This document shows positions 30,001 to 33,000 of a stretch of DNA of 35,626 nt, piece by piece. The position numbers are program-made. This DNA is from a virus (lineage: Duplodnaviria > Heunggongvirae > Uroviricota > Caudoviricetes). Location of the stretch: IMG/VR virus record IMGVR_UViG_2874962485_000008, one strand, 5' to 3'. Within the stretch, counting starts at the first letter, position 1, and each line of letters starts with the position of its first letter.

Positions 30001-33000
30001 GTTTATTGGGTCTGGACTCCACACCGCGGGAGAGCTGGCTCAGCGCAATCAACGGAAAACCACCGGATTTTGCCAGGCCTTTAAGCCCCTTTGAGATTTC
30101 ACCCACGGCAAGGTCATGACGCCCCGTGGTTCGGGTTTTTATCAGCCCGAGATAATCAACCACCACCAGCGCCGTTTCCGGATATTTAATCAGGTGGTGT
30201 TTCGTTGTTGCGCATATCTCATCAATGGCCAGGTTCGCCTGGTCCACCATCCAGATATTGCGCCCGGTCATCCGCCCCACCCCTTGTGAGAAACGCGTCC
30301 AGTCTTCATCTTCAAAGTGAGCCACAGATTTCAGGCGTGATACTGGCATCCCTCCAGCCGCAGACACCATACGTTCACCAATCTGGATGTTCGCCATCTC
30401 CATGGTGAACAGAAGCACACCATGCCCCTGCTCAGTCACCTTGTCGATGATGTCCAGCGCAAGTTCGGTTTTCCCCATCGAAGGACGGGCGGCAATGAAT
30501 ACCAGGTCTCCGGGCTCCATACCGCCTGTTTTTGCGTCCAGTTCATCAATACCGGTCATCAACGTCCTGGATTTCTCCAGCCCCTGATTCCGGCATTCAA
30601 CACGCTCAACCACTTCCGGAAGCACATCATCAATATGTACCGGCTGAATGACGCCCTTTCCTGTCGACAGTGTGACCATCATGTTCTGCGCATCCTTCAG
30701 GGCATCTTCAGCTGCTTCACAGGTATGCGCATCACGTAATTTCTGCAGCGCCTCATTCAGTGTTTTTTCTGCATCGCGCAGTGCGGCATTGCGCCGCAAC
30801 GCTGCAACATAGTGCTCCAGTGAAGACTTCACCCAGGTTTTACGCCCGGTATCAGTAATCACCGGGGCAAGTTCCGGCATCTCATTACACAACAGCACGG
30901 GGTCAATCACTCCTGAAACACGGGCCTGTCTGCAGATGCCTGTATAGATATCCTGATACGCTCGTACAGAAAAAACGTCCGCTGGCAGTGTGGCCAGAAT
31001 ATCCATCACTTCAGGATCTGCTCCGCGCAGAAAGAACGCGCCGATGACAGCGCCTTCAAGGTCATCGTTACGCCATACTGGAGTTGTCATGCAGCCACAC
31101 CTCTGATACGAGAACGGTAACTGGGCCAGTTAAACGACAACCAGTTGCGTCCCCCGTCTGTGATCCTGTCGGCAATTCGGGGACTGATGAACGCCCACAA
31201 CTCTTCCGGTGAGAGGTTACTGATCAGAATGGTGGGCAAGATACTTTCGTACCTGGCGTTGATAATTTCCTGCAAAATAGCCATTTCAGCCGCGCTGCCA
31301 AACTGAACGCCAACTTCGTCGATGATCAGCAAATCCATTGACGCATAACGCTCAATAACTTCATCCGCTGTTTTTTCGCTGTCATTCCGCCAGCAATTTT
31401 TCACAGCACGGGTAAGGCGCATCACGTCGGTGATCTCCACACTGGCCAGATAGTTACGGATGATGTGTTTTGCCATAGCCACAGCCAGATGATTTTTTCC
31501 GGTACCACAACTGCCGGTCATAACAAGACTGGTACCGTTCTCCAGCATATCTGGCCAGTTCTCCGCATAGCGGCGACAGGCCGCAAGATTTCTGGCTGCG
31601 CCAGGATTAACCTCCAGATAATTATCAAACTCGCAGTCCCGAAAACGCAGGGCAATTCCGGCGTTATCAGTCAGCTCTTCCGCCTTGATGGACGACAGCT
31701 CCATGGTCAAATCGTTGGCCTCAGCGATTAAGCAGTCAGGGCAGCATGAAATTTCTTCTCTGTCCTCGCCATTACGATCGCTCCACACCAGTATATGCGT
31801 GTGATATTCGCCATGTTTTTCGCAATATCCGCGACCTTCACGCATCAGGCAGGAACGATAAGGCCATGGCTTTTCGCCCTTCTGAGCAAATGCAATCTCT
31901 GCCCGTAACTCATCCATTCGCGCCTGTAGTCTTTTTTGTTGTTCACGCAGGTTAAACGTCATCATCGCTGTCACCTCAGAATGTCTGAAGTGGTCAACAA
32001 AAACTGGCCACCGAGTTAGAGTTTTTCCAGTATCGATTTTCCGATTCGTTTGGGGGTAACCCACCGTTATATTCGTGCGGTCTTAGTGCACTGTAATATC
32101 CAACGATATAGTCCGTTATGGCGTGAGCTGCCTCGCTGAAGCTTACGTAACCCACCACCGGCATCCATTCGTTCTTCAGACTCCTGAAGAAGCGTTCCAT
32201 TGGGCTGTTATCCCAGCAGTTTCCGCGCCGGCTCATACTCTGTCTGATCTGGTATCGCCACAATAACTGCCGGAACTGCCTGCTCGTATAATGACTGCCC
32301 TGATCGCTGTGGAACATCACCCCGCCGGGCTTACCACGGGTTTCCCATGCCATTTCCAGCGCTTTCATGGTGAGCCTGCTGTCCGGCGAGAACGACATGG
32401 CCCAGCCCACTGGTTTTCTTGCGAACAGGTCGAGAACAACGGCGAGGTACGCCCAGCGCTTACCCGTCCAGAGTAGAGTAAGAGGCAGGGCGTAGTCGGA
32501 CTATTTCCCTGCCTCTCCTCCCCGAACCGGACGTGCACCTTTCAGCGCATCCGGCTCTCCATTTAAATGCTGGCGAACGCCATTGCCACTTCTGTAAAGC
32601 GCGATGTATACGTGTTTCTGGTCTCCGTCCTCAGATAGGGATTACCTTCGGGTAGCCGCCAGCGGAACAGCTTCTTGCCTTGCCCCACCAACCGGTACAG
32701 TATTTCGCCGCTGAGCTTGCCGTGATTGGTTTTACCAAATAAAACCCACGTTTTGCTCTGACCCGGTTTCGGTGATTTACACCACCACCTCATCAGGGAA
32801 GCGATACCTGTACGGTATTTGCGGGCCAGCCAGTGAGCCAGCTTCCAGAACACGACACGGTCGATATAGCTGAAGACTTTGGCCTTAAAATCAACGAACT
32901 GATAGAACATGGCCCAGCCTTTCAGTTTTCGGTTGAGTTGTTCAGCCATATCGACTTTGCTTTCACTGTAGTTGCCTGATAACAGTGCTGTCAGCGATGC

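Follow-up and report, generated by a model that had tools for sequence, protein, structure and literature searches.

E.c.I4 is a group II intron of Escherichia coli that homes to a specific position in the transposase genes of the IS3-like elements IS629, IS911, ISEc16 and ISEc31, and K-12 strains are listed with one fragment of it (Leclercq and Cordaux, PMC3522654). E.c.I4 and its 99%-identical twin from Shigella, S.f.I1, fall into ORF class A, which is among those classes that lack an endonuclease (En) domain (Toro and Martinez-Abarca, PMC3552965). The naming rule of the group II intron database demands a nucleotide identity of >95% to a named reference (PMC3552965). Another En-less intron, RmInt1, relies on primers provided by the replication fork (PMC8914252).

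The window analyzed in this report is a stretch of 35,626 nt (IMG/VR record IMGVR_UViG_2874962485_000008) in which an open reading frame for a reverse transcriptase (RT)/maturase on the minus strand is followed by two hairpins. The 90 nt downstream of its stop codon are, with high confidence, domains V and VI of a complete E.c.I4, which encodes an En-less class A protein and is inserted in sense orientation into the transposase gene of IS911. The element is an already known, ordinary and very common retroelement of E. coli and Shigella and leaves the understanding of group II introns unchanged. For annotation, two fragments labelled "IS3 family transposase" and one "reverse transcriptase" are best read as a single IS911 split by a single intact group II intron, and neither as three pseudogenes nor as a defence-type RT.

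A complete group II intron in the transposase gene of IS911

The intron comprises 2270 nt (34742..32473, minus strand) and is located in sense orientation in orfB of IS911. It begins with GUGUG (from 34742) and ends with AC (32474..32473); these boundaries fit the group II consensus 5' GUGYG ... AY 3'. Joining of position 34743 to position 32472 fuses ...GTGACCTATA to TCTGGACGGG... and reopens the orfB frame. The 3' splice site 32473|32472 is proven by this restoration of IS911 orfB. The joined exons, taken over 400 nt, are 100% identical to uninterrupted IS911 copies in many E. coli genomes and score 316 bits against the NCBIfam model of the IS3 family transposase.

No Rfam family for domains I–IV matched the intron at E ≤ 1, the available models covering other lineages. 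For this reason the integrity of domains I–IV is judged from the 100% identity to widespread copies and from conservation. The first 650 nt of the intron align across 60 relatives.

The intron is 100% identical to introns annotated as ltrA in other E. coli genomes. Of 5426 complete E. coli genomes, 1874 contain copies that extend over 80% or more of its length; a single genome has as many as 20 matching places, and these lie on chromosomes as well as on plasmids. Among the 3208 matching records, 2722 have a best place with an identity of 99% or more. The fragment ykfC of K-12 shares 99.7% identity over intron nt 1–1764, and truncated copies in other records cover nt 956–2270 or 1767–2270. A Shigella flexneri genome encodes a protein that is 100% identical to the intron-encoded protein (IEP) of the window. 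In addition to IS911 in the window, ISEc31, IS629 and another IS3-like element contain the identical intron, and in each host it lies at the homologous codon, after D-x-T-Y. The K-12 fragment, the target specificity, the Shigella twin and the En-less IEP together strongly support the name E.c.I4. Given that near-identical copies are widespread and occur at up to 20 places per genome on chromosomes and plasmids, the lineage appears to have been mobile recently.

Genomic setting of the host element

IS911 spans positions 31986..35504 (minus strand) and measures about 1250 bp without the intron. Its extent is given by both terminal inverted repeats, the IS3 model and the matches to uninterrupted copies. 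The element links the chromosomal genes ybdM/ybdN to a truncated lambdoid prophage, whose sequence breaks off 21 nt upstream of the DnaC-like gene. No 3-bp target-site duplication is present at the ends of IS911. Its position at the join of ybdM and prophage and the missing duplication indicate that IS911 has undergone recombination and marks a rearrangement. This context of 15.6 kb, with IS911 at the junction of ybdM and the truncated lambdoid prophage, is absent from the 5426 complete E. coli genomes. The portal gene of the prophage is frameshifted compared to its closest relative. An intron within an insertion sequence at the edge of a decayed prophage illustrates the known principle of bacterial group II introns nested within further mobile elements.

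The window copy might be intact and nevertheless functionally silent, either because it is untranscribed in the rearranged IS911 or because the lineage spreads mainly by hitch-hiking on insertion sequences, plasmids and islands. Such a reading would agree with the recombined state of the host element at the ybdM–prophage join, with the arrival of some E.c.I4 copies on islands and with the many genomes that contain a single E.c.I4 copy despite many free homing sites (PMC3522654). However, both ends of IS911 are present, including the left end with the promoter region of the insertion sequence, and these ends together with the sense orientation make transcription through the intron plausible. 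Furthermore, copies elsewhere match both the intron and its ORF at 100% identity. The same intron resides at the homologous codon of four different hosts of the IS3 family, a pattern that cannot be explained by hitch-hiking alone. A silent copy is thus considered unlikely, and the preferred reading is a potentially mobile E.c.I4.

The intron-encoded protein

The intron-encoded RT/maturase (34086..32563, minus strand) consists of 507 amino acids when translated from a TTG codon; RefSeq copies of the IEP start at the ATG at 34071, which yields 502 amino acids. Its reading frame is uninterrupted, contains the YADD motif and ends with the stop codon TAA (32565..32563, minus strand). Pfam assigns the domains RVT_1 (residues 91–337, E = 1.5e-34) and GIIM (residues 361–426, E = 1.3e-10). 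These two are the only Pfam domains detected, and no endonuclease domain is among them. Likewise, the C-terminal 80 amino acids show neither a Cys-rich nor an HNH motif. DNA with 100% identity is annotated in other E. coli genomes as ltrA WP_001189111.1.

The open frame also bears on the reading as a decaying relic, in which domains V and VI are retained while the intron is truncated or its ORF broken, as in ykfC of K-12. Truncated copies of the kinds listed above (nt 1–1764, 956–2270 and 1767–2270) do occur in E. coli. The window copy, on the other hand, has the full 2270 nt with both canonical ends, an ORF that is open over 507 codons with RT and X domains, and a sequence 100% identical to that of full-length annotated copies. 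The complete ends, the open ORF and the exact exon junction refute a relic, which is therefore very unlikely. The preliminary description of this locus had regarded the intron as structurally intact and potentially mobile rather than as a relic. Full length, an exact junction, an open ORF with RVT_1 and GIIM and identical copies elsewhere support that view of the intron, and the window copy may be able to splice and to move.

Domains V and VI

The segment between the TAA and the 3' splice site (32562..32473, minus strand) comprises 90 nt and has the sequence AUGGA-GAGCCGGAUGCGCUGAAAGGUGCACGUCCGGUUC-GG-GGGAGGAGAGGCAGGG...CCCUGCCUCUUACUCU-AC. Its helices are domains V and VI of a group II intron. 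This assignment is based on the score of the Rfam model RF00029 (group II intron D5/D6) and on covariation among relatives. RF00029 matches positions 32559..32473 (minus strand) over the full model (1–77) with 64.9 bits, compared to a gathering score of 40. The corresponding E-value is 9.6e-11 for the whole 35.6-kb window and 6.5e-12 for a local search. At permissive thresholds, two plastid D5 models of Rfam also match and cover exactly positions 32524–32557.

Domain V is a hairpin of 34 nt (32557..32524, minus strand), delimited by RF00029, the plastid D5 models and covariation. It contains the AGC triad (32556..32554), a GAAA tetraloop (32543..32540) and a 2-nt bulge in the 3' strand (approximately 32534..32533), all on the minus strand. 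Domain VI (32521..32475, minus strand) consists of 47 nt that form a 15-bp stem and a distal 4-bp hairpin, as found in the minimum free energy (MFE) fold, by covariation and by RNAalifold. In the MFE fold, the 15-bp helix is broken solely by the single bulged A32479 (minus strand). This nucleotide, the seventh from the 3' end of the intron, is the candidate branch point. It is unpaired in the MFE fold, in the alignment to the RF00029 model and in the RNAalifold structure.

The MFE of the 90-mer is −48.2 kcal/mol, compared to −28.8 ± 3.3 kcal/mol in 200 dinucleotide shuffles (z = −5.83). None of these 200 shuffles folds as stably as the 90-mer.

Conservation and covariation in relatives

Relatives of the IEP were retrieved from a collection of 185,579 species, each represented by a single genome. 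An IEP relative is encoded by 308 of the 327 candidate stretches, and the best 80 loci, with IEP identities of 66–100%, were kept. In almost all of these 80 the distance between stop codon and domain V is 5 nt.

From these loci, 40 distinct sequences of 93 nt align without gaps. Throughout this alignment the structure of domains V and VI is maintained: 98.3% of 1320 cells are standard pairs and 10 of the 33 base pairs remain paired through changes on both sides. In 500 column shuffles the observed values of pairing and covariation are never reached. If the 3' partners are slid by 1–3 columns, pairing falls to 38–50%. The 14 pairs of domain V are 99.6% paired in the 40 relatives and include a compensatory swap between G-C, U-A and C-G at columns 15/36. 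In domain VI, 97.3% of the cells are paired and 6 of the 15 stem pairs show double-sided changes, with swaps between G-C and A-U at three places. The A at column 87, which corresponds to A32479, and the AGC triad are invariant in all 40 sequences. Without a supplied structure, RNAalifold gives the same two helices and the same unpaired A; only the register of the domain V bulge differs.

At first sight, a pair of stable hairpins right behind a stop codon may look like a terminator, but a terminator or chance GC-rich inverted repeats behind the RT gene are exceedingly improbable and were rejected in view of the RF00029 match (E = 9.6e-11), the ten compensated pairs, the invariant bulged A and AGC triad, the lack of a U-run after either hairpin and the exact end of the sequence at the IS911 exon junction.

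The closing helix of domain IV

RNAalifold predicts a strongly covarying helix of 9 bp that closes domain IV (54 relatives). Its 5' strand, GUUUGAAUG, is located at 34137..34129 (intron nt 606–614, minus strand) and its 3' strand, CAUUUAAAU, at 32569..32561 (minus strand). The 3' strand spans the last codon of the maturase ORF, the stop codon and the following two bases. Changes of the stop codon from UAA to UGA or UAG are compensated on the 5' strand: one pair is U-A in 31 and C-G in 21 sequences. Domain IV and domain V are separated by GGA alone, i.e. three unpaired nucleotides. Domain V starts 5 nt past the stop codon because the stop codon is itself part of the helix that closes domain IV. 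An ORF that reaches the base of domain IV is a conserved trait of the lineage and not peculiar to the window copy. It illustrates the known principle that a maturase ORF can extend right to the base of this domain. RNA duplex folding of the region upstream of the ORF with the 3' end of the ORF resulted in a long, uninterpretable pseudo-duplex and was dropped for the RNAalifold helix.

The preliminary description had placed a canonical domain V hairpin and a domain VI with a bulged A in the 90 nt between the RT stop codon and the 3' splice site. Its coordinates are correct throughout, with the ORF ending at 32563 and the next 90 nt reaching the splice site. Folding of minus-strand positions 32473–32562 and comparison with the D5/D6 consensus, both proposed there, bear out the two domains. 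Both helices form with the stability given above, and RF00029 is matched over its full length well above the gathering score. The AGC triad, bulge and GAAA loop of domain V are present, and so is an unpaired candidate branch point that is invariant among the 40 relatives. In one detail the picture is refined, as A32562 and U32561 pair into the closing helix of domain IV. The word "compact", used there for the two domains, is only partly appropriate: with 47 nt domain VI is not especially compact, whereas the overlap of stop codon and domain IV is.

Target recognition

The last seven nucleotides of the 5' exon (34749..34743, minus strand), ACCUAUA, form IBS1 and cover the codons for Thr and Tyr in the DVTY motif of OrfB from IS911. 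The candidate EBS1 is UGUGGGU at 34480..34474 (intron nt 263–269, minus strand); among all 7-mers of the first 750 nt it alone pairs with every base of ACCUAUA. For a single sequence this match is not significant, since by our own estimate about 0.8 chance matches are expected in 750 nt if G-U pairs are allowed. The assignment becomes convincing when scored against seven natural target variants of near-identical introns: 47 of 49 cells are paired for UGUGGGU, compared to 36 of 49 for the second-best 7-mer. The target varies at positions −1 (R), −2 (Y) and −5 (Y), and precisely these positions face a U or G, bases that accept wobble pairs. The G/U-rich candidate EBS1 of E.c.I4 accommodates synonymous changes at wobble positions of its target.

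Across the family, covariation of EBS1 and IBS1 is inconsistent. The homologous loop varies (UGUGGG, UAUGGG, UGAGGG) and matching changes in the exons are not found, so the EBS1 assignment applies to E.c.I4 only. The targets across the family are constrained by the encoded protein and are nearly invariant. In a search for EBS2, four 5-mers tie, including the conserved motif GGUGAUGU at intron nt ~154–161. The 3' exon starts with U in nearly all copies.

The wider family

In nearly every member of the family the insertion point is one base past the Tyr codon of W..D-x-T-Y, in the region of the first catalytic Asp in DDE transposases of the rve type. About 60 relatives from many phyla share the transposase target site, and 57 of the 59 distinct relatives with flanks are located after W..D-x-T-Y of a DDE transposase. 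The hosts belong mostly to the IS3 family, in addition to IS6 and IS481-like elements.

Two papers describe class A as consisting of two or three introns that are almost identical to each other (PMC3552965, PMC7306698). Tentatively, the lineage of E.c.I4 may instead be a large family that spans phyla rather than a tiny enterobacterial oddity of two or three near-identical class A members, a view we find possible and still rather doubtful. If true, it would represent a retroelement lineage specialized on those codons of other transposons that are conserved best. The breadth of the wider family and its uniform targeting of DxTY are the only aspect that possibly deserves a separate look.

Putative mechanism

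By analogy to the established biology of group II introns, the following course of events can be proposed. The intron would be transcribed together with orfAB of IS911, and the maturase would assist in folding of the RNA. Domain V, with its AGC triad and bulge, would provide the metal-binding catalytic center. The 2'-OH of A32479 would attack the 5' splice site (34742|34743) and a lariat would be formed. The released 5' exon, held by pairing of IBS1 and EBS1, would then attack the 3' splice site (32473|32472), whereby the IS911 mRNA would be religated. A particle of lariat and IEP could reverse-splice into intron-less transposase genes of the IS3 family, just past the D-x-T-Y codons. As the IEP has no En domain, nascent DNA at replication forks presumably serves as the primer of cDNA synthesis, as in RmInt1.

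Comparison with known group II introns

Domain V of the yeast mitochondrial intron ai5gamma has the sequence GAGCCGUAUGCGAUGAAAGUCGCACGUACGGUUC and, like that of the window intron, consists of 34 nt. Both have the AGC triad, the GAAA loop and the same bulge position, and they differ mainly by compensated pairs. A bulged branch-point A 7–8 nt from the 3' end is common to both introns. In contrast to the window intron, ai5gamma is an organellar IIB1 intron without an ORF, and its domain VI is shorter.

The IEP of the bacterial intron RmInt1 consists of 419 amino acids and has a class-specific C-terminal extension. RmInt1 (Sinorhizobium meliloti, class D, IIB3) resembles the window intron in that its IEP lacks an endonuclease domain, it also homes into an insertion sequence, ISRm2011-2, and it possesses canonical domains V and VI with a bulged A (PMC1802570, PMC8914252). 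The two introns differ in ORF class (D in RmInt1, A in the window intron), in the target element and in the target sequence.

The closest match is E.c.I4/S.f.I1 (= IntA), with which the window intron shares an IEP of RT and X domains only, the fixed site in IS3-family elements, the K-12 fragment and the Shigella IEP. No difference to E.c.I4/S.f.I1 was detected in the window intron; solely its genomic context is unmatched. Finally, ykfC in the CP4-6 prophage region of E. coli K-12, 99.7% identical over intron nt 1–1764, is truncated at the 3' side and lacks the end of the maturase as well as domains V and VI, whereas the copy in the window is complete.

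IS911 at the junction of chromosome and prophage

The IS911 that hosts the group II intron (31986-35504, minus strand, intron included) lacks the 3-bp target duplication at its ends, where CCC on one side faces GAC on the other (31983-31990 and 35501-35626). To its left lies core chromosomal DNA, the ybdM/ybdN region, which is found in 5393 of 5426 complete E. coli genomes. The right flank is a lambdoid prophage that is cut 21 nt upstream of its DnaC-like gene. Because the duplication is missing and the flanks are of different origin, this IS911 marks a junction formed by deletion or recombination. 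The early-left region of the prophage has been lost. The arrangement of ybdM/ybdN, IS911 and truncated prophage was found in none of the 5426 genomes.

Prophage genes

The portal gene (20881-22474, minus strand) is split into two ORFs of 207 and 351 aa. In the closest prophage (NZ_CP011416.1) it is a single gene of 530 aa, and a 1-nt indel separates the two versions, which suggests either that the prophage is defective or that the sequence contains an error. Terminase genes and lysis module are separated by a mosaic segment of ~1.26 kb (24866-26129) that has no match in the NZ_CP011416.1 prophage, which is elsewhere 98-99.7% identical. Four clustered tRNA genes (28267-28577, minus strand) are flanked by the genes for the Q antiterminator and holin, a layout seen in many lambdoid and Stx-type phages. 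Three are Gly-UCC, Thr-UGU and Arg-UCU; the fourth, with a CAU anticodon, is assigned to Met by ARAGORN but to tRNA-Ile in the RefSeq annotation.

Insertion site and maturase stop codon

In 57 of 59 distinct relatives of the intron among loci L002-L084 (66-100% identity of the intron-encoded protein), the insertion point lies in a DDE transposase gene, one base past the Tyr codon of its W..D-x-T-Y motif. The homologous site in the window is 34743-34755. Most hosts belong to the IS3 family, with an IS6-family element at L028 and an IS481-like element at L057. Source taxa include Proteobacteria, Nitrospirota and Bacteroidota-like MAGs, among others. The bacterial ORF class A has been described as 2-3 near-identical introns (PMC3552965, PMC7306698).

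The maturase stop codon is base-paired within the helix that closes domain IV (32561-32569 and 34129-34137, minus strand). Changes of UAA to UGA or UAG in relatives are matched by compensation on the opposite strand of this helix.

Nested elements in strain M217

In strain M217 (locus L001, NZ_AP019189.1, 4247-8907) the same IS911-intron unit is further interrupted upstream by IS30. This three-level nesting, with IS30 and the group II intron within IS911, resembles the insN-insI-insO/ykfC region of CP4-6 in K-12.
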